DNA of 64,000 bases from Promethearchaeota archaeon (GCA_048938005.1 JBHLMQ010000011.1:1-64000), one strand, 5' to 3'. Positions 40,151-62,792 are shown, numbered from the stretch's first letter. Numbers and translations: made by a program. Notes: a model not told the origin generated them from the sequence alone.

Positions 40151-41143
40151 ATGACATTCGATCCTCTAGAACGTTTTTTCTCAAGCATGGCTATTTTTCT
40201 ATTATTTATTTGTAGTCTTTTATATATCTCCAGGGGATTTAAAAGAGACGATAAAAATGAAAGAATTTTAATGTTCGGATTTGGAGTTTTTTCGTTTAAG
40301 ATTGCCTTAACAAGACTATTTTTTTATATCATCGACTATTTTTTGATCGGAACTTACACTGGCGATTTAAATATTATTATTCAGACTTACGATGTCGTAA
40401 ATTATATTTTTCTATATTTCTACTTATATCTATATATCCAAGTTTTTATAAGTACAATAGTTATAATGACCATATTTATTTGGTCGTCATTCAAGTCAAA
40501 ACATGAATTTCAGGCAATCTCATCAGTTATAGCGATCGGATTTGCCATATTTTTAATTGGATGGAGTTTTGAGGCATTTATTATAAAAAATTTAAGAATA
40601 TTTACTCCTGCAATACCTCCGATATTTATAATAATGGGAGTTCTTATAACTATTTCACCGTTAATAGGCTATATTGAATTCTTTTCAAAACGCATTGTCA
40701 AAGTATTTATTTTAATCATGATAAGTTTACTCGCAATATATATAGGATTAACTTTAATTTTTAATATTCAATTGGTTGATTTGGTCCTAATTATAATTTG
40801 GATAGCCGTTTTTACTCTCATTTTAACAATAGGATATATATTTTATAATTATGTGAAAAGAAGAGAATCTGGCAAGTATAAGGAAGAACTAAAAGATACA
40901 TTAAGAATTTTTACCAAACCTCCTAAATTTGATATACAAGAAATCAAATATAGTAGAGAAAAAGAATTATGTCTGGTGTGCAAAAATAAGATTTCAGGAT
41001 TGACATATGTTTGTCCTAAATGTGGTGCATGGTACTGTTTAGCCTGTTGTGAAGCCTTAACTGAGTTAGAAAACGCTTGTTGGGGATGCGAAACACCTTT
41101 TGATAAGTTTAAATCTGTAAAATATATGAATAAAAATTATTGA
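40151..41143 (+). CDS. ~7TM membrane protein with C-terminal C4C4 RING-like zinc finger (cassette 1)
   Basis: Seven hydrophobic segments by eye; Cx2Cx10Cx2Cx4Cx2Cx10Cx2C tail. Confidence 0.8.
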   Translation: MTFDPLERFFSSMAIFLLFICSLLYISRGFKRDDKNERILMFGFGVFSFKIALTRLFFYIIDYFLIGTYTGDLNIIIQTYDVVNYIFLYFYLYLYIQVFISTIVIMTIFIWSSFKSKHEFQAISSVIAIGFAIFLIGWSFEAFIIKNLRIFTPAIPPIFIIMGVLITISPLIGYIEFFSKRIVKVFILIMISLLAIYIGLTLIFNIQLVDLVLIIIWIAVFTLILTIGYIFYNYVKRRESGKYKEELKDTLRIFTKPPKFDIQEIKYSREKELCLVCKNKISGLTYVCPKCGAWYCLACCEALTELENACWGCETPFDKFKSVKYMNKNY

Positions 41144-41173
41144 AGAAATTTTATAAAAAAAATTCATGAAAAA

Positions 41174-41371
41174 GTGAAGTTAATGATTGATTTTATTTTT
41201 TTAATTCTAATTATTTTCTTAATAATTTCATTTCTTACTTCATTAATTATATCAATATGGGTTTATAGAGATGCAAAAAACAGGGATCTAAATGCTTTCC
41301 TATGGATTTTAATAATATGGTTGATCCCTAGCTTATTTGGATTATATTTTTATCTAAAAAGTAGAGAATAA
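41174..41371 (+). CDS. Small membrane protein, PLDc_N-like (cassette 1)
   Basis: IWVYRDAK.R..NA..W...W.IP...G...Y motif; paralog of 59460. Confidence 0.7.
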   Translation: MKLMIDFIFLILIIFLIISFLTSLIISIWVYRDAKNRDLNAFLWILIIWLIPSLFGLYFYLKSRE

Positions 41372-41530
41372 TTATTAAAAAATATACATCCTTATATCAT
41401 TAGAGAATATCGTAAAGTCTTTTTGATTATAATCAATAAATTTACTTCAATTAGAATTAATATCTATAAATAAATTAGCTAGAAGCATAAAAACAGAAAG
41501 CTACACAATTATGGAGGGGTATAATTAATC

Positions 41531-42610
41531 CTGGCTCAAATTTTATTAACAGGAGAGGAAGGTGTAGGGAAATTAACAATCTTGAATCTATTCCCAGGTG
41601 AAAATATTTTAGAAATAGACTTACATTTGAATGAAATTTTTAAAAAATCAATTGAGATAAGAGGGCTCAATGGTATAAAACAATGTATGTTAAGAGTTAT
41701 CGATTTAAAAGAATTAGTTAGGAATTTAAGATCATATAAAGATCTATTACAATCAATTGATATAATTTGTATTATCACAAATTCGCAACTAAGAAATTTA
41801 AAAAGTACTCGTATATTGTTATCAAAACTAAAACAAAAAGTCCCTGAAGCAAATTATTATGTAATTGCTAATTTTCAAGATAGAAAGCGAATAGTTTTAG
41901 AAGTAGAAGAAGTTGAAAAAATGTTAGAAGAAAAAACGTTTGGATTTTCAGCAGTTCAGAAAGATTCTATGGATAAATTAATTTCTATTATTAAAAATAT
42001 GTTAAAATTAACAAAATTAGAGAAAGAGATAAAAACTATCTCTAAGATAGAAATTATATCAAAAGAGGAAAAGAAGGAATCTATTATTAAAGCCAAGGAG
42101 AATTATTCAAATATTTGGTCAGAATTAGAGGAAGCAAGAATATTAGATAATCAAGGAAAAAAGCTCATTGCTGCAAAAAAGTTCTCCAGTGTTGCCTCTC
42201 ATCTTAAAGAACTTGGTTCAGAAATAGAACTTAAACAAGAAGGAGAAAAGATTAATGGTTTACATTATTTGTGTAAAGCATGGGAGTTTATGGCACTTGC
42301 TGAAGAATATAAAGATCCTAAAAATTATTTAGAAGCAGCAAATCTCTTTACCGAGGCTAGTGAATGTATTCATGATAGTAAACTAAAACTATTAGCCTTA
42401 GGAAATTCAGAGTTATGTAGAGCACTAAAGTTAGGGCTTGAACTCTGTAAACTGAATCAAACTAAGAATAACTTAGAATATTACCCAAAAATAAAAATAT
42501 TGATTAAAAAAGCTGTGGATTTATACAGAAAGGGTGGTTTTGAAAAAGAAGCAGAGTGGGCTTTAGATAAATCCTCTCATTTTAATGCCACCAATCACTC
42601 TAGTCCATAG
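41531..42610 (+). CDS. Degenerate small-GTPase-like domain fused to a helical domain (cassette 1, C-terminally shortened)
   Basis: The P-loop ILLTGEEGVGKLT lies in frame upstream of the ORF-track TTG (41582); ANFQD and FSAV motifs; paralog of 50284. Confidence 0.72.
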   Translation: MAQILLTGEEGVGKLTILNLFPGENILEIDLHLNEIFKKSIEIRGLNGIKQCMLRVIDLKELVRNLRSYKDLLQSIDIICIITNSQLRNLKSTRILLSKLKQKVPEANYYVIANFQDRKRIVLEVEEVEKMLEEKTFGFSAVQKDSMDKLISIIKNMLKLTKLEKEIKTISKIEIISKEEKKESIIKAKENYSNIWSELEEARILDNQGKKLIAAKKFSSVASHLKELGSEIELKQEGEKINGLHYLCKAWEFMALAEEYKDPKNYLEAANLFTEASECIHDSKLKLLALGNSELCRALKLGLELCKLNQTKNNLEYYPKIKILIKKAVDLYRKGGFEKEAEWALDKSSHFNATNHSSP

Positions 42611-42838
42611 TTCTAATTTATCATTTTCTTTTAAACCAAAATCTTGAACGGCTTCTCTTATGGATAAGGAATTAGGTAATTCTTTACCTTTATAGACTAA
42701 AGCAAATGATCGATCTTCTAAGCTCATTGTGCCTAAATGTTTAACAACTATATTTATGATACTTTCAATCATATGTTTTTCATTAACATCTATTTTAATT
42801 ATTTTCCCTTTTCTCGTATCTTCAACTGATAGTATCAT
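42563..42838 (-). CDS. Ubiquitin-like protein 1
   Basis: Beta-grasp-like pattern LVYKGKEL and LELWTRVIGG followed by IKMRGFI; two paralogs nearby. Confidence 0.75.
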   Translation of the reverse strand: MILSVEDTRKGKIIKIDVNEKHMIESIINIVVKHLGTMSLEDRSFALVYKGKELPNSLSIREAVQDFGLKENDKLELWTRVIGGIKMRGFI

Positions 42839-42955
42839 AATATCTTGAATATTGTTTTTATTAATTCCTATTTAATAATTAACTATTTTACAATTTAAAG
42901 AATATTCTAATCAATTATTTTTAATTATTGTTATTTAATTCATAGTTTATTAAGC

Positions 42956-42998
42956 ATTTTTAGATTTAACTTCGGAATATTTTAAAAAGTTCGAAGTT
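42956..42998 (-). promoter_or_regulatory. Cassette motif copy A (upstream of Ubl 1)
   Basis: 42/43 identical to the reverse complement of 44587-44629. Confidence 0.8.
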
Positions 42999-43188
42999 CC
43001 TTGAAATTTAAATCTAACCAGAGATAGTGATTTATTTTAAGATTTAAATGTAGTATCTTGTTAAGATGAGATTAAATTATTTAAACAGGATTGAATTATC
43101 TCTATATTGAAATTATAAATATATGTTTTAAAAAAGTATAAACTAAATTATTTTAGAAAAAATAAGAGTTATATGGTGTTTTATTAAG

Positions 43189-44532
43189 ATTTGTGCTAAA
43201 AAATTAAATTATCCCCCACAAGAGATACTTACACCTTCAGGGATTGAAAAGAAAGATTTTGAATATATTATTCTTTGGATGTTAACTAATAATGAAGAAT
43301 GCAATTGGTCAGATTTTTCAGACGAACCCATAGAAATCAGCTTAGCTACATTATCAAAATATATGAATCAATTAATGACAAATGGATTTGTGGAAAAAAA
43401 AGAGAAGGGGATCTATAAAATTACAACCGAAGGTAAAAAACGATATTTTGATTTGCGATTTAAAGATTCTTATGACAAGAAATTAAGGTACCCCCCAGAA
43501 ATCCTTCTAAATAAAAGAAATTATGACCACATTATCCTTTGGATGTTGTTCAATAATGATTATTGTAAATGGTCAGATTTCCTCGAAAAACCTCTCTCAA
43601 TTAATCACAATTCTCTTTCGAAAAATCTAAATCTTTTATTAAAAAAAGAATTTGTTGAAAAAGAAAAAATGGAATATCGAATCACTAAACAAGGTGAATT
43701 ACAATATTCTAAAATGTTAAAAAAATATGATTTAGACTATCAAACTATTTTAGAAGAAGAAGTTAAAAGAATTGAAAATGCCAAAGAAAAGGTAAATGAT
43801 CTTCTTGAAAAGTTCGAAATTGAGGAGGATGAGATAAAAGTCATATTATTGGATTTAGTTAACCATGTAGACTATGCTACAATTGAAAACTTACTACCGT
43901 CAGAGGAGGATTATTATAGGATATTATTATTCTTTTCGTTGAATCATCCTTACAATTATCCAGAATACATATTACCTGAAATATTCTCTCTTAAATTTAA
44001 TATTAAACTTGTCTCATTAAATTTCTTCATACAAAAAATTGTAGAAGAGAATTTGTGTGGAATAAAATTCTTTAAGTTAAGTATTAATGAGGACGGAACA
44101 TATTATTTCCGAGTAGACGAAAAATTTGAGAAGATGTTATATTTAATCATAGATGAGAATATTGTAAAATTTAGTTATCTAACTAAACTAAAACCAAGTA
44201 TTCCAAATGAAAAACAAGTTTTACAAACAATGAGTTTAATAGAGAATATTGTAGAGGATATCTCGAATAAGTTGTTCGATGAAAATATAAAACCGCATAT
44301 AATAAAATTCTTACCACAATATATCAAATATTTATACTCGAAATTTCAGAGAACTGATTATACTAATGATGGAATGGAAAAGTTCAAAGGGATTGCTTAT
44401 CAAAACATTATTAATTTAAATTGGGATGATTTCAATGAAATACTTCTCAAAAAGAAATTAATCACAAATCTTATGCATACTTTTCCGAAGTATACAATAT
44501 TGGATAAAATCAAAAAGAAATGGGCAAAATGA
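43189..44532 (+). CDS. Tandem winged-HTH (MarR-like) regulator (cassette 1)
   Basis: Two YPP...IILWML.NN..C.WS.F...LS..L...Y.IT..G repeats. Homology to 60655 extends 30 codons upstream of ATG 43279 to ATT 43189. Confidence 0.75.
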   Translation: MCAKKLNYPPQEILTPSGIEKKDFEYIILWMLTNNEECNWSDFSDEPIEISLATLSKYMNQLMTNGFVEKKEKGIYKITTEGKKRYFDLRFKDSYDKKLRYPPEILLNKRNYDHIILWMLFNNDYCKWSDFLEKPLSINHNSLSKNLNLLLKKEFVEKEKMEYRITKQGELQYSKMLKKYDLDYQTILEEEVKRIENAKEKVNDLLEKFEIEEDEIKVILLDLVNHVDYATIENLLPSEEDYYRILLFFSLNHPYNYPEYILPEIFSLKFNIKLVSLNFFIQKIVEENLCGIKFFKLSINEDGTYYFRVDEKFEKMLYLIIDENIVKFSYLTKLKPSIPNEKQVLQTMSLIENIVEDISNKLFDENIKPHIIKFLPQYIKYLYSKFQRTDYTNDGMEKFKGIAYQNIINLNWDDFNEILLKKKLITNLMHTFPKYTILDKIKKKWAK

Positions 44533-44586
44533 ATACTAAATTTATTATTTAGATCTATCCTATATTGTATTGAACGAATTTCAATA

Positions 44587-44629
44587 AACTTCGAACTTTT
44601 TAAAATATTCCGAAGCTAAATCTAAAAAT
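44587..44629 (+). promoter_or_regulatory. Cassette motif copy B (upstream of the secreted protein gene)
   Basis: aacttcgaactttttaaaatattccgaagctaaatctaaaaat; inverted relative to copy A. Confidence 0.8.
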
Positions 44630-44686
44630 AAATTGGTGAAGTAAAGATCAATTAATAAAAATTTAAATAAAAGAGGTTAAATATAA

Positions 44687-45373
44687 ATGAAAAAATCTAA
44701 CTTAATGAAAAGTTTATTGGTGATAATTACTTCCTCAATATTTTTTTCGTGCTTTCTCCCGATTGCTTATTCTGATGAAGTTGGAATTTTCGATGGTATG
44801 GAAGTTAAACATACTTATACTCTCTCCCAAATGCCAGGAACAGAAATACCTATGATCTTTACGTTCTCTAAGTTGTCAGATGACATGTTTCATATTGAAA
44901 ATGAATTGAAGGCTCCTATTTATGATACAGGTTCTTGGGATGTAAATACCAGCACAAGAGTTATATCAAATGTGAAGAAATTTGGCCCAGACGAAGGTGA
45001 TCATGCGGTGTTTTGGATTTATACTGATGTTTCCCTTAATGATCAATTTTTGATGTGTAATTTATGGAAGGGCCAGCTTTCCCCTCCGGGTGACACTCTT
45101 TTCAATGTTACTGGTGAAGCGATGCATGGTTCTATGGCAGTTTGGATATTAGAAGATGCTTATGGAAGTGAACTATGGTATGAGAAAACTAAAGGATTTT
45201 TTGTAAATGGCACAATTAGCTATGCTCCAGAATGGAATCATTATGAGTTCGTGGAGACCAATGCCCTTCGTACAAGTGGAGCAGCGATTCCAGGATACAG
45301 TTATCTCTTCTTAATTAGTATTATAATTGCTGTCTCAATTATTATACTGAAAAAGCAGAAAATCAAAAAATAA
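44687..45373 (+). CDS. Secreted/surface protein with IPGY-TM-basic sorting tail (cassette 1)
   Basis: Signal peptide; GSWDVN and WYEK motifs; ends IPGY + TM + KKQKIKK; paralog of 62793. Confidence 0.8.
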   Translation: MKKSNLMKSLLVIITSSIFFSCFLPIAYSDEVGIFDGMEVKHTYTLSQMPGTEIPMIFTFSKLSDDMFHIENELKAPIYDTGSWDVNTSTRVISNVKKFGPDEGDHAVFWIYTDVSLNDQFLMCNLWKGQLSPPGDTLFNVTGEAMHGSMAVWILEDAYGSELWYEKTKGFFVNGTISYAPEWNHYEFVETNALRTSGAAIPGYSYLFLISIIIAVSIIILKKQKIKK

Positions 45374-45466
45374 AATTTAAATAAATTACTTTTTTTTCCT
45401 TTTTTTTATTCCTTTAACAATATAATTAAACTAATAACATTCCAAGAAATATCTTTTATCTTTATC

Positions 45467-45727
45467 TTAAATTTTGCCCCCAATCACTCTAGTCCATAAT
45501 ATTAATTTATCTCCTTCTTTTAGATCAAATTTATGAATTGCATCCTTAATGGTTATTGAATTTGGTAATTCTTTTTCATTGTAGATTAAGGAGTAAGATC
45601 TTTGTTCAGAGTTTGAAAATTGCTTATTTTGAATAATATATTCGAGAATAGACCTAACTACCTGGTTAGGTTTAACATCTATTCTTATTAATTTCCCTGT
45701 TCTCGGATCTTCAACAGATAATCGCAT
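45467..45727 (-). CDS. Ubiquitin-like protein 2
   Basis: LIYNEKEL and LILWTRVIGG followed by KI. Confidence 0.75.
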   Translation of the reverse strand: MRLSVEDPRTGKLIRIDVKPNQVVRSILEYIIQNKQFSNSEQRSYSLIYNEKELPNSITIKDAIHKFDLKEGDKLILWTRVIGGKI

Positions 45728-45823
45728 AATAGTTTCATTTAATTTTTGATTCTGAATATCGCTTATTATACAATTAGGGAATCTATTATTTTTTTTATAC
45801 TAATAATTAATTTAAAAATGTCA

Positions 45824-45863
45824 TTATTTAGATTTAGGTTTGGAACTACTTTGAAAGTTCGAA
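45824..45863 (-). promoter_or_regulatory. Cassette motif copy C (upstream of Ubl 2)
   Basis: tttagatttaggtttggaactactttgaaagttcgaa; same layout as copy A. Confidence 0.7.
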
Positions 45864-46119
45864 TCTTTTTTAGGAATAAGCTTGGTTTCTTTATTGAATT
45901 TTATTAAGAGTCTTAAAAAAATTTAAGTAATAATCCTTTTTTTCTGTAAGGATTAGCTTTCTATTCTAAAAGTTTACAAAAAAGTAGTAATAATTTTAAA
46001 TAATTTCATCTTATCTATTTACATTAGTGAAATATTTAGCTTCCTTCTGAAATCTACTGCATATCAAGAACATTTATCAAAAAAAAATAAATAAATAAAA
46101 AAAAGCAGTTGATTGTCTT

Positions 46120-47817
46120 ATGGTAGAAGCCGAAATTAGTCCGAAAAAGAAAAAAAAGTTTTTTAAAGTACTGAATAAAAGACAAAAAATAGCAGTTGGA
46201 ACAACGAGTATTATCGCTTTAGCGGCAATTGTTAGCGGTATTTATTTCTTTTTACAGCTGCCAAAGAAAAATTCTCTTGTTGTAGGTATTAATGGTGGCT
46301 TGTATGGTATTGAAAGTATTGATCCATTTAAAGCTTTTTTTCAGGAACGAATGGTAGTTGATCAGCTTGCTGAGTGTTTATTTGTTTATGATCCTTCTGG
46401 GGATCATTTTCAAATTAGTCCAAATTTAGCAGTAAATTATAGTTGGAATGGGAATTACACAGAATTAACATGTAGCCTTAGAAGAGGCGTGAAGTTTCAC
46501 GATGGAACAGAATTCAATGCTACAGCAGTTCAATGGAATTTTGACAGAATATGTTTTCTTGTTAATAACACACAATATTTTCAATATTTTAATTACCTTC
46601 ATTGTTTTCCAAACGGCCGCAGGATTCTCAATAAAACTCAAGTTGTTGATGATTATATAATAAAATTTGTACTAAATGCACCCTATATTTCATTTAGAGC
46701 ATTATTGACCCACTATTCCACAAGTATTTTATCCCCTACATCCACCCCGCATAACAATTTTACAGACATTACAGGGAATTTAATTGGGACTGGTCCTTTT
46801 ATCCTTGATAGTTTTGAGCCTGGTGTCAAAGCTATATTATCCCCTAATCTGAATTATTGGGGCGCGAAACCTAAGATTGATAAATTAATTTTTTCAGTGT
46901 TTTCTAATCGTAAAGCGCAATGGGACGCAATGCTTGCAGGAGATATTTCCATGTTGGATCCATTTTGGACATTTGGATATCAATTCAATTATTCATTAGA
47001 TTTACTCAAAAATGATCCTCATATCACTGTACGAGAAGAAGGAACATGGGCTCATTTATCTTATATTGCCATGAATAATAAATTGATCAATATACCCATG
47101 AGAAAAGCAATCTCTTATGCCATTAACTATTCTTATATATTTGAAAAAGCTATACTTTATAATACCTCTATAAGATGTAGGTCTCCTATTCCAGTAGGAT
47201 TATTATATTCTAATACAACTGGTATTAATCTTCCTTATTACAACATTACTATCGCGAGACGTACTTTAAAAGAAGCTGGTTGGGCTGGAACCGCTAACTT
47301 GACTGCAAATGATGATATTAGCCCTGGTAACGAATGGGAGCAGTTAGTAACTGAGGGGACGCCTCTTGCAACATATAATCTTACACACTATATAGTTGAC
47401 CAACGAAAAAATATCCAATCAATTCTATTACAAGATAATCTTAAACAAATTGGAGTTGAAATAGACCAAGCAGGTTATGTTCCATATAAGCATATTATGT
47501 TAACTGGCTGTGCGGCAGATTTTAATGATCCAGCTAACACGATCAATTTATTTTACTCAAATAACTCATTATTTTGTAATGATTGTCAATTTAATGACAA
47601 TTTAACGCAGCAATGGATGGATCAAGCTATAAAAGACCCTAATCCTAATTCAAGAAGACAGTTATACAACAAAATTCAAAAACGTATAATTGAAGAGCTT
47701 TTTCCATGTGTATTGACTTATACCTATAAGAATTTTGGTATCTATATTCGAAATTTAAGAGGATTTAACATAGATCCATTTAAACGAATAAAATTTAATG
47801 AGATTTATTTCGATTAA
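46120..47817 (+). CDS. Family 5 solute-binding protein, membrane-anchored (cassette 2)
   Basis: LRRGVKFHDGTEFNATAV and GTGPF motifs; paralog of 37234. Confidence 0.88.
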   Translation: MVEAEISPKKKKKFFKVLNKRQKIAVGTTSIIALAAIVSGIYFFLQLPKKNSLVVGINGGLYGIESIDPFKAFFQERMVVDQLAECLFVYDPSGDHFQISPNLAVNYSWNGNYTELTCSLRRGVKFHDGTEFNATAVQWNFDRICFLVNNTQYFQYFNYLHCFPNGRRILNKTQVVDDYIIKFVLNAPYISFRALLTHYSTSILSPTSTPHNNFTDITGNLIGTGPFILDSFEPGVKAILSPNLNYWGAKPKIDKLIFSVFSNRKAQWDAMLAGDISMLDPFWTFGYQFNYSLDLLKNDPHITVREEGTWAHLSYIAMNNKLINIPMRKAISYAINYSYIFEKAILYNTSIRCRSPIPVGLLYSNTTGINLPYYNITIARRTLKEAGWAGTANLTANDDISPGNEWEQLVTEGTPLATYNLTHYIVDQRKNIQSILLQDNLKQIGVEIDQAGYVPYKHIMLTGCAADFNDPANTINLFYSNNSLFCNDCQFNDNLTQQWMDQAIKDPNPNSRRQLYNKIQKRIIEELFPCVLTYTYKNFGIYIRNLRGFNIDPFKRIKFNEIYFD

Positions 47818-47848
47818 TATATTCTAATACAATAAAGTTTTGAGAAAT

Positions 47849-48877
47849 TCAATTTATACTTTTAAGATCCAAGTAAAAACTTGAATCAATGATTTCAAAT
47901 ATCAAATTATAATAGTAATTCACCTTATTTGTCAAAACATCATTTGAGGTAAAACAATGAATACCGACCGAAGCATTATTATATATAGCATCATTATATT
48001 CAAACCCATCTAGGCATTCGGTTAGGTCATGATACATACAATTCGGTTCAGTTACATGTCTGCTATTTCCATAGGGTATTTGAAATTTAGCCCCAATATT
48101 AGCACTGTTGTCATCATAATTTATATTTAGGATTCCACCATTCATTATTACTTTACCTGTTATATTCGCCTCTAGATCGATATATTGAGAAATATAAATG
48201 TCGAAGTTTCCAGTTTCTATTGTAAAATTCCAATAACTATTTTGTGTATATCTCGCATCAAAGGTCTTTAATTCAAAATTACCCAAATTAATTATCCCTG
48301 TCACATTTCCCCTGATAATACAGCTGTAAAAATTATAGAAAACATTACCGTTGGTGAGATTTATTAATAAATTATTTATAGAAACACCAGATGGAACTGT
48401 TAGTTTAATATTTCCATCATATACTGTTGTTATAATATCAAGAACGATATCAGATCTTATAGTTACTGAAATGCTGACATTTCTTTCAAAAAACTTTGAA
48501 GAATCAAACCAACTACCTGATATAAGCTTCATTGTAAAATTTACTGGAGAGCTTGTATTATGCCAAGCAATATTAAAGAAATCTAAATATGATTTCTCAT
48601 TTAAACCTGAACCACTCATTTTAATATTCACATTTATCTTCAAAATATAATTAACTGGTTGATCAGTATACTTTATATCGACGTTTCCTATATCCGAATA
48701 AATATTTAATTTTTCAATAGGTGATGGTGTACTTGGTGTATATTCATAGGTAATTGATTCATCAATCCTACCGTAGTTTGAATAACCGAGTAAAAGAATA
48801 GTAGTTGGAATAGTTGCAATGATAATAACTATGATAATGTTTATTATAGCAATTGTAATTATACTTTTTTTCGCCAT
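47849..48877 (-). CDS. Membrane-anchored beta-solenoid-like protein (cassette 2)
   Basis: Paralog of 38978; start MAKKSII at 48877 chosen by alignment with the paralogs. Confidence 0.72.
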   Translation of the reverse strand: MAKKSIITIAIINIIIVIIIATIPTTILLLGYSNYGRIDESITYEYTPSTPSPIEKLNIYSDIGNVDIKYTDQPVNYILKINVNIKMSGSGLNEKSYLDFFNIAWHNTSSPVNFTMKLISGSWFDSSKFFERNVSISVTIRSDIVLDIITTVYDGNIKLTVPSGVSINNLLINLTNGNVFYNFYSCIIRGNVTGIINLGNFELKTFDARYTQNSYWNFTIETGNFDIYISQYIDLEANITGKVIMNGGILNINYDDNSANIGAKFQIPYGNSRHVTEPNCMYHDLTECLDGFEYNDAIYNNASVGIHCFTSNDVLTNKVNYYYNLIFEIIDSSFYLDLKSIN

Positions 48878-49093
48878 TATTGAGTTCATTAAATAAAGTG
48901 AAAAATCCTTCAAATTATTAGATAAGAGAGATTTATATTTAAATCATGCACATAAATAATACTTAAAGAACTCCTATTGAAATTTATATGAGAAATTAAA
49001 AATTTATTATATAGAATTCCTTAATTGGTATTTATTAATTACATGAAAATGCTCAGGTGAATCCAAATACCAAATGGTATAATCTTTGATCCA

Positions 49094-50071
49094 GTGGAAC
49101 GTTTTTTTTCAAGTATGGCTATTTTTTTGTTTTTTATATCCAGTATTTTCTATATATCTAGAGGATTCAAAAGAGAAAAAAAAATTGAAAAGATTTTAAT
49201 GTATGGATTTGGAAGTTTTTGGCTTATCGTTTCGCTTTCAAGGTTATTTTTTTATATCTTTGACTATATTTTAGAGGGAACTTATTCTGGTGATTTATAT
49301 GTTATTATTGTAACTTCTGATGTTGTACTTTATATATTTTTATATTTCTATTTATATTTCTATATCTATATATTTATAAATATAATAATAATAATTGTGA
49401 TATTTATTTGGTTTTCTTTTAAATCAAAACATGAGTTTCAAGCAATTTCTTCAATTATAACTATCGGATTTGTTACTTTTTTAATTGGATGGACTATTGA
49501 GGCAGTATTTATAAAAAATTTAAATATATTTTCACCTGCCATCCCTTCGATATTGGTAATAATAGGAGCCATTATTGCAATTTTCCCATCAATAGGGTAT
49601 TTTGAATTTTTTTCTAAGACTATTATTAAACTTTTTATTATAATAATGATAATTTTAATAGCGTTGTTTTTAGGTTTTAATCTATTCTTTAATCTTCAAT
49701 TAATTACTTTGATTTTATTCATAATTTGGAGTTCAGTTTTTACACTTATTTTGGTGATAGGTTATGTAATTTATCGCTATGCTAAAAGAAGAGAATATCA
49801 TATAGAAAAAGAAGAAATCCATGATACTATACAAAAATTTGCTCGACAACCAAAATTTAGCGTAGAAGATGTAAAGTATCACAGAGATAAAGGATTATGC
49901 CTTGTATGTAAAAATAAAATTTCAGGATTAACATATGTTTGTCCTAATTGTAATGTATGGTATTGTATTAAATGCGCTGAAGCTTTAATTGGAATAGAAA
50001 ATATTTGTTGGGTTTGTCAAACACCTTTAGACAGATCTAAACCAGTAAAAAATCAGAAAAAACTCCCATAA
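49094..50071 (+). CDS. ~7TM membrane protein with C4C4 RING-like tail (cassette 2)
   Basis: Paralog of 40151 with identical Cys spacing; true start may be ATA at 49067. Confidence 0.8.
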   Translation: MERFFSSMAIFLFFISSIFYISRGFKREKKIEKILMYGFGSFWLIVSLSRLFFYIFDYILEGTYSGDLYVIIVTSDVVLYIFLYFYLYFYIYIFINIIIIIVIFIWFSFKSKHEFQAISSIITIGFVTFLIGWTIEAVFIKNLNIFSPAIPSILVIIGAIIAIFPSIGYFEFFSKTIIKLFIIIMIILIALFLGFNLFFNLQLITLILFIIWSSVFTLILVIGYVIYRYAKRREYHIEKEEIHDTIQKFARQPKFSVEDVKYHRDKGLCLVCKNKISGLTYVCPNCNVWYCIKCAEALIGIENICWVCQTPLDRSKPVKNQKKLP

Positions 50072-50283
50072 GAAATATTATAAGGAAATAATGGAATATG
50101 TAAAAATGGGGAGTGAGTGAATCCTTTCAGTATATTAATTGTTAATAATCTTTAAAACTCTATATGAACTCTTTAATTAATGTTAGAATATATAACTAAA
50201 TTAAATGCATCTAAAAAGAAAATCTAAGTTGATATTAAAAAATAAATCATTTGAAGTAATAAGCCAGTTATTCCAAAATATTA

Positions 50284-51567
50284 ATGGATGTGCATAGATT
50301 GATACCTCCAAGCATTTTAATTACAGGAGAAAAGAGTGTAGGAAAATCAACAATTTTAGATCTGTTTCCTAGTGAAAAGATTTTAGATATAGATGAAAAT
50401 TTAAAAACAATGATAAAAAAACAAATTGAAATAGATAATTTGAAAGGTATTAACCAATGCATTCTCAGAGTTATAAATTTGGAAGATTTGGTCAGAGATT
50501 TCAAATCTTACAAAAATCTATTACAATTTGTTGATATAATTTGTATTATAATAAATTCAACTATTAAGAATTTAGAAAGTACACATAAATTGCTCTTAAA
50601 ATTAAAACAAAATATACAGGATATCGATTACTATGTTATAAATAGTTTCCAAGATAGAAAAAAAGCTTTAGAAATGAAAAAAGTCGAAGAATTATTGGGA
50701 GAAAAAACCTTTGGATTTTCAGCCGTTCAGAAAGATTCTAAGGAACAAATGCTCTCCATTATCAAAGATATTTTAAGAATTTCTATTTTAAATAAGGAAG
50801 AATTTAAACGGTTAAAACCTGAAGAGAGAGGATTAATCGATTTAAAAGAAATTACAACTAAACGGACTGAAGAAATTCTTAAAATGAAGGAAAAATATCT
50901 AGATCTCTGGTCAGAGGTAGAAAAAGCAAAAATTTTAGAGAAGCAAGGAGAGCATTTCAGAGCGGGAAAAAAATTTTCAGATGTGGCTTCCCTATTTAAA
51001 GAAGCAAGTTCAGAATTACATATCAAACAAGAAAAGGAAAAAATCTGTGCGATGTATTATTTATGTAAAGCATGGGCGAGCATGGAATTAGCTCGAGAAT
51101 ATAAAGAACCTGAAAAGTTTACAGAAGCTGTGAAATTATTTACCCAAGCTAGCGAACATATATATGACAATGAATTAAAATTATTAACACTAGGAAATTC
51201 GGTGTTTTGTAAAGCTCTAGAGCTAGGATTAGAATTTGATATTTTGGATGAAACTAGTCTTAAGGCAGAATATTATCCAAAAATAAAAGAAATGATTAAA
51301 AAAGCAGCTGATTTGTATAGAGAGGGTGGTTTTATAAATGAAGCAGAATGGGCTCTAGCAACATCATCCTATTTTGATGCAATTTGGCATTTAATCAGAG
51401 CAGAAAAAGAAATAAATTTAGATGAGAAAAAAAGAATTATAGGTATCATTCCTGACATTTTTTTATCCTCAGCTAAACTATTCGGAAAAGCAGGGTATAA
51501 AGAAAAAGAAAAAGAAGTATTAGATTATTTAGAACTGTTTCATAAGGAATGGGATAAAAATCGTTAA
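50284..51567 (+). CDS. Degenerate small-GTPase-like domain fused to a helical domain (cassette 2)
   Basis: GEKSVGKST P-loop, SFQD and FSAV motifs; long alpha-helical C-terminus. Confidence 0.75.
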   Translation: MDVHRLIPPSILITGEKSVGKSTILDLFPSEKILDIDENLKTMIKKQIEIDNLKGINQCILRVINLEDLVRDFKSYKNLLQFVDIICIIINSTIKNLESTHKLLLKLKQNIQDIDYYVINSFQDRKKALEMKKVEELLGEKTFGFSAVQKDSKEQMLSIIKDILRISILNKEEFKRLKPEERGLIDLKEITTKRTEEILKMKEKYLDLWSEVEKAKILEKQGEHFRAGKKFSDVASLFKEASSELHIKQEKEKICAMYYLCKAWASMELAREYKEPEKFTEAVKLFTQASEHIYDNELKLLTLGNSVFCKALELGLEFDILDETSLKAEYYPKIKEMIKKAADLYREGGFINEAEWALATSSYFDAIWHLIRAEKEINLDEKKRIIGIIPDIFLSSAKLFGKAGYKEKEKEVLDYLELFHKEWDKNR

Positions 51568-51607
51568 AAATTGAATAAATTATCCCAAATACAAAAAAAA
51601 TATCTAG

Positions 51608-51880
51608 TTAAATCTTATTATTAGTTATTCCTCCAATCACTCTAGCCCATAAAGATAATTTATCATGTTCTTTTAAATCATATTTTTGAATTGCTTCTCC
51701 AATGGTTATTGAATTTGGTAATTCTTTTCCATGATGGATTAGAGCATAGGATCTCTGTTCTGAATCTATGATACCCATATGTTCCACTACAAGTTTTATT
51801 ATACTTTCAACATAATGGCTTCTTTTAACATCTATTTTAATTGATTTTCCCAATCTCGTATCTTCAACTGATAGTAGCAT
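51608..51880 (-). CDS. Ubiquitin-like protein 3
   Basis: LIHHGKEL and LSLWARVIGG followed by ITNNKI; start MLLSVED at 51880 by alignment. Confidence 0.75.
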   Translation of the reverse strand: MLLSVEDTRLGKSIKIDVKRSHYVESIIKLVVEHMGIIDSEQRSYALIHHGKELPNSITIGEAIQKYDLKEHDKLSLWARVIGGITNNKI

Positions 51881-52020
51881 TAATTGATCATTTTGAATTA
51901 TTATAAACAAGAAAAATTTTATTATCTAATTTTGGGGGTGATTAACATATTATATAAATAATTAATAAAAAATTCTCTAAATTTTTTCATTGCTTTTTTA
52001 TAAATTATATTTTATCCTTC

Positions 52021-52060
52021 ATTTTTAGATTTACATTCGTAACTTATCACAAAGTTCAAA
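52021..52060 (-). promoter_or_regulatory. Cassette motif copy D (upstream of Ubl 3)
   Basis: 35/40 identical to the reverse complement of 53600-53639. Confidence 0.75.
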
Positions 52061-52066
52061 TAGGAT

Positions 52067-53416
52067 TTAAAAATTATCTTTTAACTTTCTTCTAATTTCA
52101 TCCAAAATTACATATTTTGGAAATTCCACCAAAAAGGGGATTATCTTTCTTCTCCCTGGAGTTAAAGTACTAAACTCATTTAAATCTAAGTTCAATATAT
52201 TTTGATACGCTATACCCTTGAATTTATCCATTAAATTCTGTGGATGGGAATCTCTTTGAAATTTTAAGTAGATAAATCTTATGTATTCTTGTAAGAATTT
52301 CCTTAATAATGGCTTTATTCTTTTATCAAATAGTTTATTGCAAACGTCATTTAAAATATTATCTAGTAAAATTGCTGTTTCTAAAACTTTTTTATTATCT
52401 GAAATATCTGGTTGTAGTTTATTAAGATAACTATATTTAACAATATTCTCATCTAAAATTAAATACATCATCTGCTCAATCTTTTCGCCTTCTCGAAAAT
52501 AGTAAGTTGCATTATTATCAATAATAAATTTAAAAAATTTTATATTATAGAGATTCTCTTCTACAATATTTTGTATTAAAAAGTTAAGAGTTGGAATTTT
52601 GATATTATATTTAAGAGAGAAATCTTTAGGTAATATATAATCTGGATAATTATTTGGGTGATTAATAGAGAGGTATAATATAATTTTATAAAAATCCTCC
52701 TTGCTTACTAATGACTTTTCAGTTTTAGTATAATCTAAAAGATTAAACAAGTCAAAAAATATAATTTTAATGTTATTATTTTTAACTTCATACTCTTCTA
52801 GGAAAGCATTAACAGTTTTCTTGAGTTTTTCGATTCCTTTAATTTCTTCTTCTAAAATTGATTTGTAGTCTAAATCATAAAGTTTTAATATTTTATTATA
52901 CTCAGATACGCCTTTTCTTGTAATTTGATACTTAGAATTGTCTTTCTTTATAAATGTTTTTTTTAATAAGAGATTTAAATTTTTTGATAAAGAATTATGA
53001 TTAATTGAGAGAGGTTTCTCAATGAAATCTGACCATTTACAATAATTGTTATTAAATAGCATCCAAAGAATTATATGGTCGTAATTTCTCTTATTTAAAA
53101 TTATTTCTGGAGGATATCTTAGTTTCTTGCCGAATGAGTCTTTAAATCTTAGATCAAAATAACGTTTTCTTCCTTCAGGTGTAACTTTATAGAGACCTTT
53201 CTCTTTTTTTACTACATGTTCGTTTGTCATTAATTTTTTCATATATTTTGATAATGTAGCGAGATTAAATTTCAAGGGATCATCTAAAAAGTCAGACCAA
53301 TTACATTCTTCATTATTATTAAGCATCCACAGAATAATATATTCAAAATCTTTCTTTTCGATTCCAGGGGGATTAATTAATTCTTGAGGAGGATAAATTA
53401 TATTTTTTCCAGTAAT
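52067..53416 (-). CDS. Tandem winged-HTH regulator (cassette 2)
   Basis: Close paralog of 43189. The frame extends 30 codons upstream of ATG 53326 (IYPPQELINPPGIEKKDFEYIILW) to ATT 53416. Confidence 0.75.
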   Translation of the reverse strand: MTGKNIIYPPQELINPPGIEKKDFEYIILWMLNNNEECNWSDFLDDPLKFNLATLSKYMKKLMTNEHVVKKEKGLYKVTPEGRKRYFDLRFKDSFGKKLRYPPEIILNKRNYDHIILWMLFNNNYCKWSDFIEKPLSINHNSLSKNLNLLLKKTFIKKDNSKYQITRKGVSEYNKILKLYDLDYKSILEEEIKGIEKLKKTVNAFLEEYEVKNNNIKIIFFDLFNLLDYTKTEKSLVSKEDFYKIILYLSINHPNNYPDYILPKDFSLKYNIKIPTLNFLIQNIVEENLYNIKFFKFIIDNNATYYFREGEKIEQMMYLILDENIVKYSYLNKLQPDISDNKKVLETAILLDNILNDVCNKLFDKRIKPLLRKFLQEYIRFIYLKFQRDSHPQNLMDKFKGIAYQNILNLDLNEFSTLTPGRRKIIPFLVEFPKYVILDEIRRKLKDNF

Positions 53417-53599
53417 CTTATGAAATCACCGTGGATCTCTTGATTTTTAATAATATACATTATTTCCAACATTTCTTAGACTTAAATTTCCAATATCTGT
53501 ATAAAAATATGCAAGACGGATTTAAATAGTTTAATCTAAATAAAAATCTACTCATTTTATCCAAATCTCTTATTAATCTCAATTTAAAATTCAATAGAC

Positions 53600-53639
53600 T
53601 TTGAACTTTGTGAAAAGTTACTAAGCTAAATCTAAATAT
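53600..53639 (+). promoter_or_regulatory. Cassette motif copy E (upstream of the secreted protein gene)
   Basis: tttgaactttgtgaaaagttactaagctaaatctaaa; contains the dyad AACTTT-N4-AAAGTT. Confidence 0.75.
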
Positions 53640-53695
53640 TAAAATGTGATCTAAACGTCATTTGACAGCAATCAAAAAAATGAGGCTGTATAAAA

Positions 53696-54340
53696 ATGAA
53701 GAAATCTAATTTAATGAAAAAATTGATGTTGCTAACTTTAGTAGGGCTTATGATCTCTGGTTTTACAATAGGAGTTCTAGGAGCAAAAACCGAAAAAATT
53801 AGACCGCTTGAAGAATGGGGTGAAGTTAATCCCTGGCTTGGTGTTTCGTTTGTTTTCCCTAGAGCGTTTTTTTCTTATGACTGGTATGGTGAACTTGCCG
53901 ACCCTGATATAACCTATAATGGGTTCATTCTCGAACAAGAGAACTCTGATGGATCCATCGATGTAAAAGTGAACTTACGCATCCACAATTTACCTATGGG
54001 TGTGCTTGAAGTGGGAAAAGGCTTAATATTTATGGGGATTGGAGAGCTATATTTTTATATAGAATTCACAATGGATAATGGATACTATGGTATTGAACTA
54101 CCAACATTAGATAATCTTTTTGAGAATTACACCTTTGGAATCCATGGCCAATTAAAATCAATACATGAAATTGCTAATGGTTCTGGATATTATTTTGAAC
54201 CTGGTATGGAACCCGTACCGGCACAAGTCACATATAAAGGATTAGGGTTAGTAAAACCCGATATAAGAGAAGATCATCCATTGCGTGAAATTTACCCTAT
54301 AATTTGGCCTGGTGAATTCATAGATATTCATATGATATAA
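53696..54340 (+). CDS. Secreted hypothetical protein (cassette 2)
   Basis: Signal peptide begins MKKSNLMK as in 44687; body unrelated by eye; no IPGY tail. Confidence 0.75.
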   Translation: MKKSNLMKKLMLLTLVGLMISGFTIGVLGAKTEKIRPLEEWGEVNPWLGVSFVFPRAFFSYDWYGELADPDITYNGFILEQENSDGSIDVKVNLRIHNLPMGVLEVGKGLIFMGIGELYFYIEFTMDNGYYGIELPTLDNLFENYTFGIHGQLKSIHEIANGSGYYFEPGMEPVPAQVTYKGLGLVKPDIREDHPLREIYPIIWPGEFIDIHMI

Positions 54341-54576
54341 GAAAGGCAGATACCTATCTAGGGTTGAATTTTTTAATTAAATATAGAAGCGGAGGTTTAA
54401 GTTTAGATAATTGGTCTCTCGATAAACCATACCTAAATTATTATTCCTCCTTTCTATATCTTTTTTTTTTAAATTTCGAAATTATTATTAATGAAAATAA
54501 GAGTTTTAACAAACCTTTTTATTTTTTAAAATCTAATCATATTTTAAGTACAATCCTGTAGTATTTATTCTAATCT

Positions 54577-55122
54577 ATGAGTAGCTCTGGAAAAAAATTA
54601 AAATTTAAAGTTACTGTTATAGGGGATGGAAGAGTCGGAAAAACATCCCTAATTAAAAAATTCACACTTGGCACATTTGAAACGGATTATGTTGAGACTA
54701 TTGGGGCCCAATTTTCTAAATATGATAAAGAGATCAATAGTGATAATATTAGATTAATATTTTGGGATATTGCCGGACAACGAGATTTCGATTTTCTACG
54801 TCCTTCCTTTTATAGAGAGAGCAATGCCGCTATCATTGTATATAGTCTTGAAGAGAATCAACTGGGGAAGCGTAGCTTTGAACACATAACAGATTGGCAT
54901 CAGGATATTAAACAGTTCTGTGGAGATATCCCTATTGTTCTTTTTGCTAATAAAATTGATTTAATTGATGAGTCTAATTTAGAGCACTCTGAAATTCAAA
55001 ATATTGCAAATAAATTTAGTTTTCTTGGCTATTATATAACATCCGCCAAAACAGGTCAGGGAGTTTATCAAGCATTTAACGCTATTATTGAAGAATTATA
55101 TTATAAATCTAAAGCAATTTAA
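54577..55122 (+). CDS. Rab/Ras-like small GTPase
   Basis: Canonical G1 GDGRVGKT, G2 TIG, G3 WDIAGQ, G4 NKID and G5 TSAK; no C-terminal prenylation Cys motif. Confidence 0.93.
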   Translation: MSSSGKKLKFKVTVIGDGRVGKTSLIKKFTLGTFETDYVETIGAQFSKYDKEINSDNIRLIFWDIAGQRDFDFLRPSFYRESNAAIIVYSLEENQLGKRSFEHITDWHQDIKQFCGDIPIVLFANKIDLIDESNLEHSEIQNIANKFSFLGYYITSAKTGQGVYQAFNAIIEELYYKSKAI

Positions 55123-60654: not shown

Positions 60655-62559
60655 TCATTCTAAATCTTCAATCTCAGCAAGAAAAATATCTGCTATTTTA
60701 TGCCATTTCTGTTTAATATCTAGTTCTTTTGACATCGAATCTGTTAATTCTTTTCCCTTTTTAAGATATTTAACTGCAGACTTCTTATTTCCGAGCTCTT
60801 TATAACATATACCTAACTTTATATATGTCTGATTAATATACCATTCATCAATAGCAATTTCAATTACTTTTTGAAATTGTTCTACAGCATTTTCATACTC
60901 TTCGAAATACATCAAAATTTCTCCATAGGTATCATAGTAAGTCCCATTATCAGGGTCAAGTTCTATGATATTGCGAATGAGATTTAATGATTCTTCTTTT
61001 TTATTTAGATATTGCAACCAATAAGCCTTATAAATAAGTATCTCGTTATCTTTAGGATATTTTTGGAGTAATTCATTAATGATGGTTAATCCGGCTTCAA
61101 GATTCCCTATTCTTTTAAGTATAGACGCTTTTTTTATTTTAATGTCTATCTCATTTTTAGGAAAAATTTCAAGCATATAATCCAATAATGCCAAAATTTC
61201 ATCAAATTGGCCAAAATAAATTAGAATCCTAATTTTTGAGTTATATAAGTCTAGCGATTTTGGATTCAATTCAATTTTTTTATTAATTTCGTTAAGTTCT
61301 TCCCGATATTGAATTTCTAGCTTTTCAGGACTTTTTGATTGAAAGATTTTTGGTATGTTTTGCCAAATAATTCCTTCTAATTTATCATATGTTTCTATTA
61401 ATTCCCTCTCAGCTTCGATTTTATATGCCAAATAATTAATATATCCAGGTATAAACTCTTTTAACGCTTCCTTTAAACCTTTATCAAGCAAAGTTTCACA
61501 GATTTCTTCTACAATATCATTTAAAGTACTTGCTGCATCTGAGGATCTAGCGAATAATTTGTTTAAATATATAAATTCTGTTAAATGATTCTCAGTAATC
61601 GCACGCATTATTGTCTCCAATTTTTCATATTCCTGAAAATAATAATGTTTATCTGGTGGTACTCTTAATTCAAAAAATTTTAGTGGATATATATTATTCT
61701 CAACAATTTCATCAACATAATAGGTTAGAGTATTCTCCTTAATTCTATAATTCTTAGAAAATTCTTCAGCTGAAACGTAATCGGGAAATTGATCTGGATG
61801 ATTAATTGAAAGAAATAATAAAATCTTATGAAAATCTTCCTCGTTTTTTAACATAGATTTAACTCTATTATAATCTAATTTTAAAACATTGTTTAAAAAT
61901 CTAAATTGGATACGCTTATCCTTAATATTATAACTATTAAAAAAATTGATTGTTTGTTTTGTGATTTCTTCAATTCGCTTACTTTCTTCTTCCAAGATTG
62001 TTTGTCTGTCCAAATCGTAATATTTCAGCATCCCTGAATACTCAGATTTGCCTAATTGAGTAATTCTATATTCTCTATTTTCATCATCCTTTCTAATAAA
62101 TCCATTTTTTATCATCATTTTCATTGTTTTTGATAATGATGATTGATTAATTGAAAGAGGTTCTTCAAGAAATTCAGACCATTTACAATAATTATTATTG
62201 TACACCATCCATAAAATCCAATGATCGTAATTCCTTCCACTTTTTAAGATTGTCTCAGGAGGATAACTTAACTTTCTTTCCTTCTTTTCAACTTTAGATA
62301 AGTCATAAAATCTCCTTTTTCCATCTAATGTAATTTTATAATGTCCTTTTGATAGTTTAGTGATGTATCCTTCACTCTTTAATACATTAAGGTGTCTTGA
62401 TAAAGTTGATGTGGGAATTTCAAGTGGGCTCTCAAGAAAATTAGACCACTCACATTCATCGTTATTAAATAACATCCAAAGAATAATATGCTCATAATTC
62501 TTTTTGTCTACCGTTGGAGGATTAATGATCTCTTGAGGGGGGTAATTAATCGTTGACAT
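60655..62559 (-). CDS. Tandem winged-HTH regulator with C-terminal TPR repeats (cassette 3)
   Basis: Same wHTH repeats as 43189 and 52067; TPR-like IELDPDNGTYYDTYGEIL...YENAVEQFQKVI. Confidence 0.82.
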   Translation of the reverse strand: MSTINYPPQEIINPPTVDKKNYEHIILWMLFNNDECEWSNFLESPLEIPTSTLSRHLNVLKSEGYITKLSKGHYKITLDGKRRFYDLSKVEKKERKLSYPPETILKSGRNYDHWILWMVYNNNYCKWSEFLEEPLSINQSSLSKTMKMMIKNGFIRKDDENREYRITQLGKSEYSGMLKYYDLDRQTILEEESKRIEEITKQTINFFNSYNIKDKRIQFRFLNNVLKLDYNRVKSMLKNEEDFHKILLFLSINHPDQFPDYVSAEEFSKNYRIKENTLTYYVDEIVENNIYPLKFFELRVPPDKHYYFQEYEKLETIMRAITENHLTEFIYLNKLFARSSDAASTLNDIVEEICETLLDKGLKEALKEFIPGYINYLAYKIEAERELIETYDKLEGIIWQNIPKIFQSKSPEKLEIQYREELNEINKKIELNPKSLDLYNSKIRILIYFGQFDEILALLDYMLEIFPKNEIDIKIKKASILKRIGNLEAGLTIINELLQKYPKDNEILIYKAYWLQYLNKKEESLNLIRNIIELDPDNGTYYDTYGEILMYFEEYENAVEQFQKVIEIAIDEWYINQTYIKLGICYKELGNKKSAVKYLKKGKELTDSMSKELDIKQKWHKIADIFLAEIEDLE

Positions 62560-62587: not shown

Positions 62588-62686
62588 TAGATAATGTTAT
62601 ACTATTATTCTATTTATATTTTTTTCCTAATACTGCCATGATAGTTCGGAATTACTATGGGACTGCGATGATAAAAACTATAAATG
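62588..62686 (+). repeat. ~100-bp upstream repeat, copy 1
   Basis: Core tgccatgatagttcggaatt...actgcgatgataaaaactataaatg is repeated within 63722-63821. Confidence 0.85.
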
Positions 62687-62792
62687 TAACAGGATCTATC
62701 TGTTATATTGATCTGATAACTATGATCGAAATTTACATAAAAAGAGGAGTTGATAAAAAATAAAACAACGTAAAAATAGGATTATTAAAGTC

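Follow-up and report, generated by a model that had tools for sequence, protein, structure and literature searches.

Two neighbouring gene cassettes of a Promethearchaeota archaeon (GCA_048938005.1) each enclose a regulator gene between inverted repeats, and the regulator lies in opposite orientations in the two, which raises the question of whether the repeats regulate the neighbouring genes, recombine, or do both. The locus lies in the first 64 kb of the 101-kb contig C70 (JBHLMQ010000011.1:1-64000, all 64,000 nt of which were analysed and are called the window below), in an assembly of 3.72 Mb, 101 contigs and 29.8% G+C. It comprises three diverged tandem copies of one cassette (window 37234-63479), and in cassettes 1 and 2 the repeats surround the genes wHTH1 and wHTH2, which encode tandem winged helix-turn-helix (wHTH) proteins and neighbour genes for ubiquitin-like (Ubl) and secreted (sec) proteins. 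The original prediction favoured operators specific for each wHTH paralog that define a regulon of Ubl and secreted-protein genes, and proposed in addition that the repeats had mediated, or still mediate, inversion of the regulator gene. Our analysis points to an explanation that we regard, as a whole, as probable: the repeats would be copies of one conserved cis-regulatory (promoter-operator) module of ~55-80 nt, and the flip of the regulator gene in cassette 1 would be a fixed, derived inversion and not a programmed switch.

Five copies of the module (A to E, Table 1) form two inverted pairs and one solo copy. The arms of pair 1 (42956-43008 and 44577-44629) are complementary at 50/53 positions (94%) over 53 nt, and those of pair 2 (52018-52060 and 53600-53642) are 86% complementary over 43 nt; the predicted cores were recovered within them, with 42/43 matches in the 43-nt core of pair 1 and 35/40 in the 40-nt core of pair 2, as was the fifth copy predicted ahead of Ubl2, which the repeat search placed at 45818-45870. 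Between the cassettes the wHTH genes align in inverted orientation (73-76% nucleotide identity) and the Ubl and secreted-gene flanks align directly, in agreement with the predicted flip of the regulator between neighbours of constant orientation. Each pair is also more similar to itself than to the other, as had been noticed (50/56 and 42/56 within the pairs of cassettes 1 and 2 over a 56-nt model, versus 72-78% between cassettes). When the genome was compared with itself by BLAST, three inverted pairs of at least 35 nt and at least 85% identity, 50-3000 nt apart, were returned from 3.72 Mb, two of them being the pairs of cassettes 1 and 2; the third, on contig C32, is unrelated and reflects coding similarity between two divergent paralogous genes. 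The inverted pairs are far above chance. Furthermore, scanning the genome with a profile built from 33 copies, including the five from this genome, gave only five significant matches, all at C70 42950-53648 (E<=1.5e-7, next best 0.07); as these five copies are themselves part of the profile, the informative part is that nothing else in the genome matches. In the same search no module was found in the intergenic region of cassette 3, and a weak palindromic match (E=0.37) was located upstream of a long paralog on contig C92.

Read in the sense of the target gene, the module consists of an optional AAATTCAATAAAC extension, a dyad TTCG-N17-CGAA whose half-sites have a centre-to-centre distance of 21 bp, or two helical turns, a spacer of 2 nt, and a TATA-like AAATCTAAAAAT; in the same reading direction, the profile consensus is aaatt.aataaacTTCGaaCTTT.t.aaat.TTcCGAAGctAAATCTAAAAATaaa. 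The dyad thus ends 2 nt ahead of what, judged from the sequence, would be a TATA box, and its proximal end lies where the B recognition element (BRE) would be expected. A conserved patch, ATCAATAAC or ATGATTTA, follows ~17 nt beyond AAATCTAAAAAT and would lie approximately at the expected transcription start if AAATCTAA is the TATA box. Two conserved types of sequence were found beyond AAATCTAAAAAT, a Ubl type (GCTTAG..ACTATGATTTATTTAATA) and a type shared by sec genes and gene X, a beta-helix gene of related genomes (AAAATTGCGAGA..GATATCAATAAC). The motif had been described as a GAACT-N8-AGTTC-like dyad; this form is perfect in the solo copy only, and the dyad conserved over 38 aligned copies is instead (C)TTCG-N17-CGAA(G).

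The module was compared across loci from the same genus (54 genomes including the one under study, G000, the others also denoted by G-numbers) and three metagenome contigs (L046, L047 and L048). We collected 46 unique copies from 14 genomes, and 43 of them are followed within 260 nt by a co-oriented open reading frame (ORF) of at least 60 aa with an ATG start. The 44th, orthologous to module C, precedes the Ubl2 ortholog of G014 (tblastn), and the 45th lies 116 nt from a contig end, its equivalent in L047 preceding a Ubl gene. The downstream genes encode Ubl proteins (15 of 46 copies), secreted or surface proteins of the sec type (17 of 46), secreted right-handed beta-helix proteins (11 of 46, an assignment supported by Pfam), and another protein with a signal-like N-terminus (1 of 46), with the class unknown for 2 of the 46. 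Sec-type start codons follow AAATCTAAAAAT at a distance of 53-58 nt in 15/17 cases; in the window the sec1 ATG lies 57 nt after the end of AAATCTAAAAAT in module B, and module E is 56 nt upstream of the sec2 ATG. Four Ubl genes were found in the genome by tblastn, and 3/4 carry the module. Gene X encodes a secreted right-handed beta-helix protein of ~440 aa (Pfam Beta_helix) and is in relatives a regular regulon member next to the 5' end of wHTH (L044 1278-2591 in G014, with equivalents in G011, G013, G015, G016, G007, G058 and G061); no homologue of it was found in the genome under study.

The occurrence of the module follows that of the regulator. The short wHTH form (~440-460 aa) is encoded in 14/54 genomes, this one included, and the core pattern with at most one mismatch was found in 14/14 genomes with the short wHTH versus 1/40 without it, with 1-4 matches in each genome that has the short form, nearly all on the wHTH contig. 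When two mismatches were allowed, single matches appeared at about the rate of a reversed-pattern control (20 over 54 genomes). A two-mismatch match at a contig start in G056 seems genuine, so the absence of wHTH from that genome may be an assembly gap. Moreover, two outward-facing copies flank wHTH in 13/13 genes examined, and further copies precede neighbouring genes. The predicted regulon of Ubl and secreted-protein genes is in this sense supported, the same-sense module standing before these genes in 14 genomes and only where the short wHTH occurs.

Table 1. Modules, regulator genes and predicted target genes of cassettes 1 and 2, with positions in the window.
Feature	Position	Strand	Context	Matches and properties
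Module A	42945..43008	-	points at Ubl1; left arm of pair 1	nhmmer E=7.5e-13
Module B	44577..44639	+	points at sec1; right arm of pair 1	nhmmer E=7.2e-15
Module C	45821..45872	-	solo copy pointing at Ubl2	nhmmer E=1.5e-7
Module D	52018..52070	-	points at Ubl3; left arm of pair 2	nhmmer E=3.5e-8
Module E	53588..53648	+	points at sec2; right arm of pair 2	nhmmer E=9.5e-11
wHTH1	43189..44532	+	inverted versus all relatives	tandem winged helix; Pfam HTH_45 32.8 bits (cutoff 25.5)
wHTH2	52067..53416	-	paralog; putatively ancestral orientation, tail towards Ubl3	Pfam HTH_45 40.3 bits
Ubl1	42563..42838	-	predicted target of module A	ends ...VIGG plus tail; weak Pfam TUG-UBL1/ubiquitin matches
Ubl2	45467..45727	-	predicted target of module C
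Ubl3	51608..51880	-	predicted target of module D	Pfam TUG-UBL1 28.5 bits (cutoff 23.3)
sec1	44687..45373	+	predicted target of module B	signal-peptide-like N-terminus; Loki-CTERM-like anchor
sec2	53696..54340	+	predicted target of module E	signal-peptide-like N-terminus; no family match

The module would thus drive a small regulon confined to this locus, made up of Ubl genes, genes for secreted or surface-anchored proteins and, in relatives, beta-helix genes. The tandem winged-helix protein, whose gene is enclosed by two outward-facing modules, is most probably the regulator, and its adjacency to and co-occurrence with the module suggest binding to the dyad, probably by a dimer. Of the two half-sites, the one nearer the promoter, CGAAG, is found at the expected BRE position, directly 5' of the TATA-like box, and because of this we lean slightly towards repression through occlusion of transcription factor B (TFB) over activation through recruitment. 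In the sections consulted of PMC5512572, archaeal activators are described as typically binding upstream of the BRE and recruiting TATA-binding protein (TBP) or TFB, and repressors as binding within the promoter and blocking TFB or TBP.

In both wHTH1 and wHTH2 two stretches match HTH_45 (PF14947) above the gathering threshold of 25.5. An AlphaFold2 (AF2) model with a mean pLDDT of 85.3 places helix-helix-helix-strand-strand units at residues 19-73 and 107-160 and has a mainly helical C-terminal part of ~260 residues. Searches of Pfam and NCBIfam found HTH_45 and HTH_34 and gave no AsnC/Lrp match, with Sso10a, Sta1 and Lrs14 remaining below cutoff. A Foldseek search against the PDB returned no match to the whole wHTH protein at E<=0.001; its best rows were multi-winged-helix proteins, e.g. 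RPC62 (TM 0.15), and the single-domain PadR/AspA. The wHTH2 ortholog of G014 is 86% identical and has the same layout, and public homologues of the wHTH protein carry labels of Promethearchaeota (Asgard) metagenome-assembled genomes.

A canonical start codon seems to be absent from the short wHTH genes (43147-43281, 53326-53434 on the - strand, and the equivalents in L031-L043). Annotation begins wHTH1 at ATG 43279, and the conserved coding sequence begins upstream of it, where the peptide (L/I)NYPPQE..GIEKKDFEYIILW is conserved with synonymous changes. At the position that is Met in some homologues, an alignment of 15 loci has ATG in one locus, TTG in two and CTA, ATA or TTA in 12, and an in-frame ATT or ATC occurs 10 nt past a conserved GGTG in 15/15 loci. 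An in-frame TGA just upstream, present in three loci, confines the start to a short interval. Translation likely begins at a non-AUG (AUU-type) codon, the likely candidates being the in-frame ATT 43189 or TTA 43204 for wHTH1 and ATT 53416 or ATA 53401 for wHTH2, and the gene calls of 417-419 aa are probably ~25-30 codons too short. A conserved A/T-rich block (..AAAAAGAATATAAA..TAGCATATTTTTAAATGAATAT..) was also observed ~90-140 nt ahead of the wHTH coding start in 15 loci (43040-43150 and 53450-53560 in the window); it is probably the wHTH promoter, which would then have moved with the gene in the inversion.

The evidence for an inversion of wHTH1 comes from the layout in relatives. Of 15 loci in which both wHTH and a Ubl gene are visible, 14 have the two genes co-oriented, with wHTH directing its 3' end towards the Ubl module, and cassette 1 of this genome is the sole locus in which the 5' end of wHTH faces Ubl. 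The common layout was found in cassette 2 of G000 and of G014 and in G015, G011, G013, G006, G016, G007, G060, G061, G058, L046, L047 and L048; a sec gene lies between wHTH and Ubl in 4 of these 14 loci. A truncated extra wHTH copy in G006 has the same layout, and L047 is probably the same organism as G048, their beta-helix protein being 99% identical. In the closest relative, G014, the cassette proteins share 80-86% amino acid identity with those here, and the locus is collinear from sec1 through sec2, including the sec1-Ubl2-SBP1 flank. Its wHTH1 ortholog (83% over 86 aa before the contig end) is divergent from sec1, with gene X between them, whereas the two genes are co-directional here. 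Together, the common layout and the arrangement in G014 argue that the head-to-Ubl orientation is derived in this lineage.

The orientation of cassette 1 is not an assembly artefact. The arms of pair 1 have no exact match longer than 29 nt, which allows assemblers that use k above 29 to orient the segment, and Logan contigs from a run of another study (X2 record 9, 42574-43583, and record 10, 44103-45162) bridge both junctions in the assembled orientation; the right junction is bridged also by X7 record 27 and X4 record 19. No flipped junction or joint at the arms was found in the contigs of four runs from four studies, contigs being a form of data that drops rare variants. Joints labelled as being on opposite strands (43231/53089 and 43249/53131) were discounted, as they lie inside the most conserved coding stretch of the paralogs (side 32-36 nt) and not at the arms. 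Several contigs terminate at an arm or within one (X4 record 17, X7 records 25 and 26), and we drew no conclusion from them.

The arms themselves carry footprints of recombination. Measured over the 56-nt model, the arms of 11 other pairs are identical at only 34-40 positions, versus 50 in cassette 1 and 42 in cassette 2. The near-identical tract of pair 1 is exactly 53 nt, and the inverted repeat is not extended beyond it, the alignment score of the inner flanks being 19 versus 19.8 +/- 3.3 for shuffled sequences. Arm A is a mosaic: its inner 13 nt (AATTTCAAGGAAC) are of the sec/X type (8.8/13 versus 4.9/13 for the Ubl type) and its outer 27 nt of the Ubl type (15.2/27 versus 9.6/27), a pattern that an exchange inside the module between Ubl and sec/X promoters would leave. 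The regulator gene invariably sits between an inverted pair of modules, which can therefore serve as substrates for homologous recombination, and we propose that gene conversion and crossover homogenised the 53-nt tract and inverted the 1.57-kb segment that contains wHTH1 together with its promoter. The outward direction of both modules is kept, so the module before each target would be unchanged and the inversion would have been tolerated and is now fixed; the flip would only exchange the neighbour that is divergent from the wHTH promoter and the one past its 3' end. Hence the second part of the original prediction divides. A past inversion of wHTH1 through the repeats is very probable, and the homogenised mosaic arms and the layout of 14/15 loci point to it. 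Inversion at the present day finds no support: no recombinase was detected in the window ORFs scanned, no flipped junction occurs in the contigs, and the orientation is constant in the other 14 loci.

Several observations weigh against parts of this explanation. Arm B retains the sec-type inner extension, 44 nt from the wHTH1 stop codon, and an inversion by crossover only is ruled out by this feature; at least two events are needed, either conversion and crossover or an inversion with later conversion. The simplest history is a conversion that created the long near-perfect repeat plus a crossover, the order of events being not recoverable. The genome also lacks gene X, found in G014 between wHTH1 and sec1, a loss that accompanies the inversion of cassette 1, so the history of the locus is more complex than one flip. 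Furthermore, the compared genomes are related and the 14/15 loci do not amount to 14 independent observations, and the contig of G014 stops inside wHTH1, with the Ubl1 side outside the sequence. As contigs drop rare variants, a minority orientation could escape them. With regard to the promoter, Ubl starts are found 41-145 nt past the module, and a simple promoter model does not account for leaders so long and so variable; the BRE and TATA box are assigned by their sequence, the 9 tRNAs detected by aragorn being too few to give the organism's own promoter consensus.

Of the other explanations, the one that survives best, though we consider it unlikely, is that the operators are paralog-specific and that selection for cognate binding, not recombination, keeps the arms of a cassette alike. 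Such selection would account for cassette 2, where the core (TTTGAACTTTGTGA.AAGTTAC.AA) is common to both arms, where the G014 ortholog keeps 34/34 core bases of module E and 33/34 of module D (1/34 different), and where the identity within the pair exceeds that of the other pairs. It does not fit with the predicted recognition-helix residues (A48, T49, L50, S51, K52, Y53; N134, S137, K140), which are invariant in 36 family members, both paralogs included, nor with G015, in which one short wHTH was found (E<=1e-130), yet both the ATTCCGAAG and GTTACGAAC core variants occur. In addition, the solo copy before Ubl2 is a third core variant, and the arm identity in cassette 1 spans the non-conserved spacer and extension and then stops abruptly, like a recombination tract. 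Strict paralog specificity, as originally proposed for these operators, appears unlikely on this evidence.

We give still less credence to the idea that the promoter modules constitute a recombinase-independent shuffling system, in which ongoing homologous recombination inverts, deletes and duplicates Ubl and surface genes within populations. It would be exemplified by the flip of wHTH1, the disappearance of gene X and the tandem arrangement of three cassettes. If this were true, cells would differ in the surface genes they carry and in the target that receives read-through from the regulator gene, and the symmetrical flanking would make the regulator orientation-neutral, with flips being tolerated.

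An active, reversible switch, with the repeats as recombination sites and both orientations present in the population, is very improbable, even though a near-perfect 53-nt inverted repeat surrounds the segment, the two cassettes are in opposite orientations and the contig data could miss a minor form. Pfam detected no integrase, invertase, recombinase or transposase in 48/52 window ORFs of at least 110 aa plus the three Ubl ORFs, a scan that covers window proteins only and leaves out four nested antisense ORFs. The bridging contigs show the assembled orientation only, 14/15 loci share one orientation, and the arms are only 34-42/56 alike in all pairs other than that of cassette 1. Moreover, the putative promoters lie in the arms and point outward either way, modules A and B in the flipped cassette as D and E in the unflipped one, so a flip reconnects no promoter to a different target.

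That the module acts as an RNA, whether a leader hairpin, a small RNA or a terminator, is barely credible. The 5-bp dyad could pair, with standard pairing in 90% of the cells of the 38 aligned copies, and the tail-side copy has a terminator-like position, module D adjoining the wHTH2 stop codon. Against this, the dyad shows no covariation (0.073 versus 0.076 +/- 0.014 for shuffled alignments, 259/500 shuffles reaching the observed score), a two-sided change is found in 2 cells only, and Rfam has no match at E<=1 in 41000-55000. A stem of 5 bp would have to close a 17-nt loop, and the dyad lies upstream of the TATA-like box and thus outside a transcript from that promoter. Pairing with no covariation and no Rfam match leads us to read the dyad as a protein-binding palindrome rather than an RNA stem. 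Finally, a 1.6-kb unit bounded by inverted repeats of 43-53 nt, its only gene encoding a DNA-binding protein, superficially resembles an insertion sequence (IS), which could suggest that the repeats are the ends of a mobile element carrying wHTH. This notion is largely refuted, as solo copies precede genes in a fixed sense, the 5 genome copies all lie within 11 kb and only at this syntenic locus instead of being dispersed, synteny across the genus holds for both flanks, the window ORFs scanned gave no match to a transposase domain, and the arms are strongly diverged in 12/13 pairs.

Apart from Ubl, wHTH and sec, the cassettes contain genes for an SBP_bac_5 binding protein, an orphan of 330-350 aa, a multi-pass membrane protein with a Cys-rich C-terminus and a P-loop/tetratricopeptide repeat (TPR) protein. 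Cassette 3 carries a long wHTH-TPR paralog (60655-62559), with neither Ubl nor module; between this gene and sec3 lies a different small palindrome, TAACAG-N7-CTGTTA (62680-62712), which is possibly the own site of the long paralog. The three cassette Ubl proteins all contain ...VIGG followed by 2-7 residues, and TUG-UBL1 exceeds its cutoff for Ubl3 only, Ubl1 and Ubl2 staying under it. The fourth, canonical Ubl paralog, on contig C9 (64234-69449), is 58-67% identical to the cassette Ubls and adjoins E2-like, E1-like (ThiF-type GxGxxG) and JAB/MPN-like genes, labels given from the translations alone; the genome profile search found no module upstream of it. The C-terminus of the membrane protein (CxxC...CxxC...CxxC...CxxC; weak Pfam C1_2 match, E=0.002) could be a candidate RING-like zinc finger, which would be of note next to Ubl genes. 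NCBIfam Loki-CTERM scores 18.4 bits, just under its cutoff of 19.9, in sec1 and sec3. A gene for a Ras-family small GTPase (54577-55122; Pfam Ras, E=2.3e-41) follows sec2, and relatives have one or two Ras-family GTPase genes at the same cassette position.

If the proposed explanation is correct, the locus offers a compact and testable Asgard regulon, with one regulator, a site of ~45 nt and five targets in this genome, that ties ubiquitin-like to secreted or surface-anchored proteins in the archaeal group closest to eukaryotes. Repeated promoter modules would double as recombination substrates and reshape the locus without disturbing its regulation, and this would explain differences in gene order and orientation between otherwise collinear relatives. 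New here are the tandem triplication, three Ubl paralogs that would be driven by modules, and an inversion with homogenised arms; a literature search, with much subscription literature outside its scope, found no description of the module or the regulator. Furthermore, the locus illustrates that an inverted repeat around a regulator gene is by itself no evidence for a switch.

With regard to regulation, the arrangement resembles those of Ptr2 of Methanocaldococcus jannaschii, TFB-RF1 (PF1088) of Pyrococcus furiosus and EarA of Methanococcus maripaludis, with which it would have in common a TATA-like box immediately preceded by a short conserved site, the presence of this site before several targets, and a regulator encoded beside a target. 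By analogy, the module and wHTH may work like these systems, the likeness being one of arrangement and homology having been compared with the Ptr2 family only. In contrast to Ptr2, wHTH has two tandem winged helices of the HTH_45 type and a helical C-terminal part and no Lrp/AsnC match, and the proximal half-site overlaps the expected BRE position rather than lying upstream of it.

With regard to the rearrangement, fimS of E. coli and hin of Salmonella are invertible promoter switches in which, likewise, inverted repeats enclose a short segment close to genes for surface proteins. Cassette 1 differs from them in that no recombinase was found in the window, the putative promoters lie in the arms and face outward either way, and each locus shows one orientation. 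Bacterial chromosomes also undergo inversions between inverted rRNA operons or IS copies. In these inversions, as here, the segment that separates two homologous stretches of opposite orientation is turned round, the breakpoints fall within the repeats and the arms bear a conversion tract; in contrast to them, the repeats at this locus are 53-nt promoter modules and not of kilobase scale, and the inverted segment is a single gene. Archaeal chromosomes, too, undergo inversions by recombination between inverted repeats, according to the portions consulted of PMC5495485, and inversions are frequent in Thermococcales. The rearrangement in cassette 1 counts as an ordinary inversion of this type, distinguished only by having 53-nt promoter modules as its repeats, and the module before each target gene is left unchanged by it.

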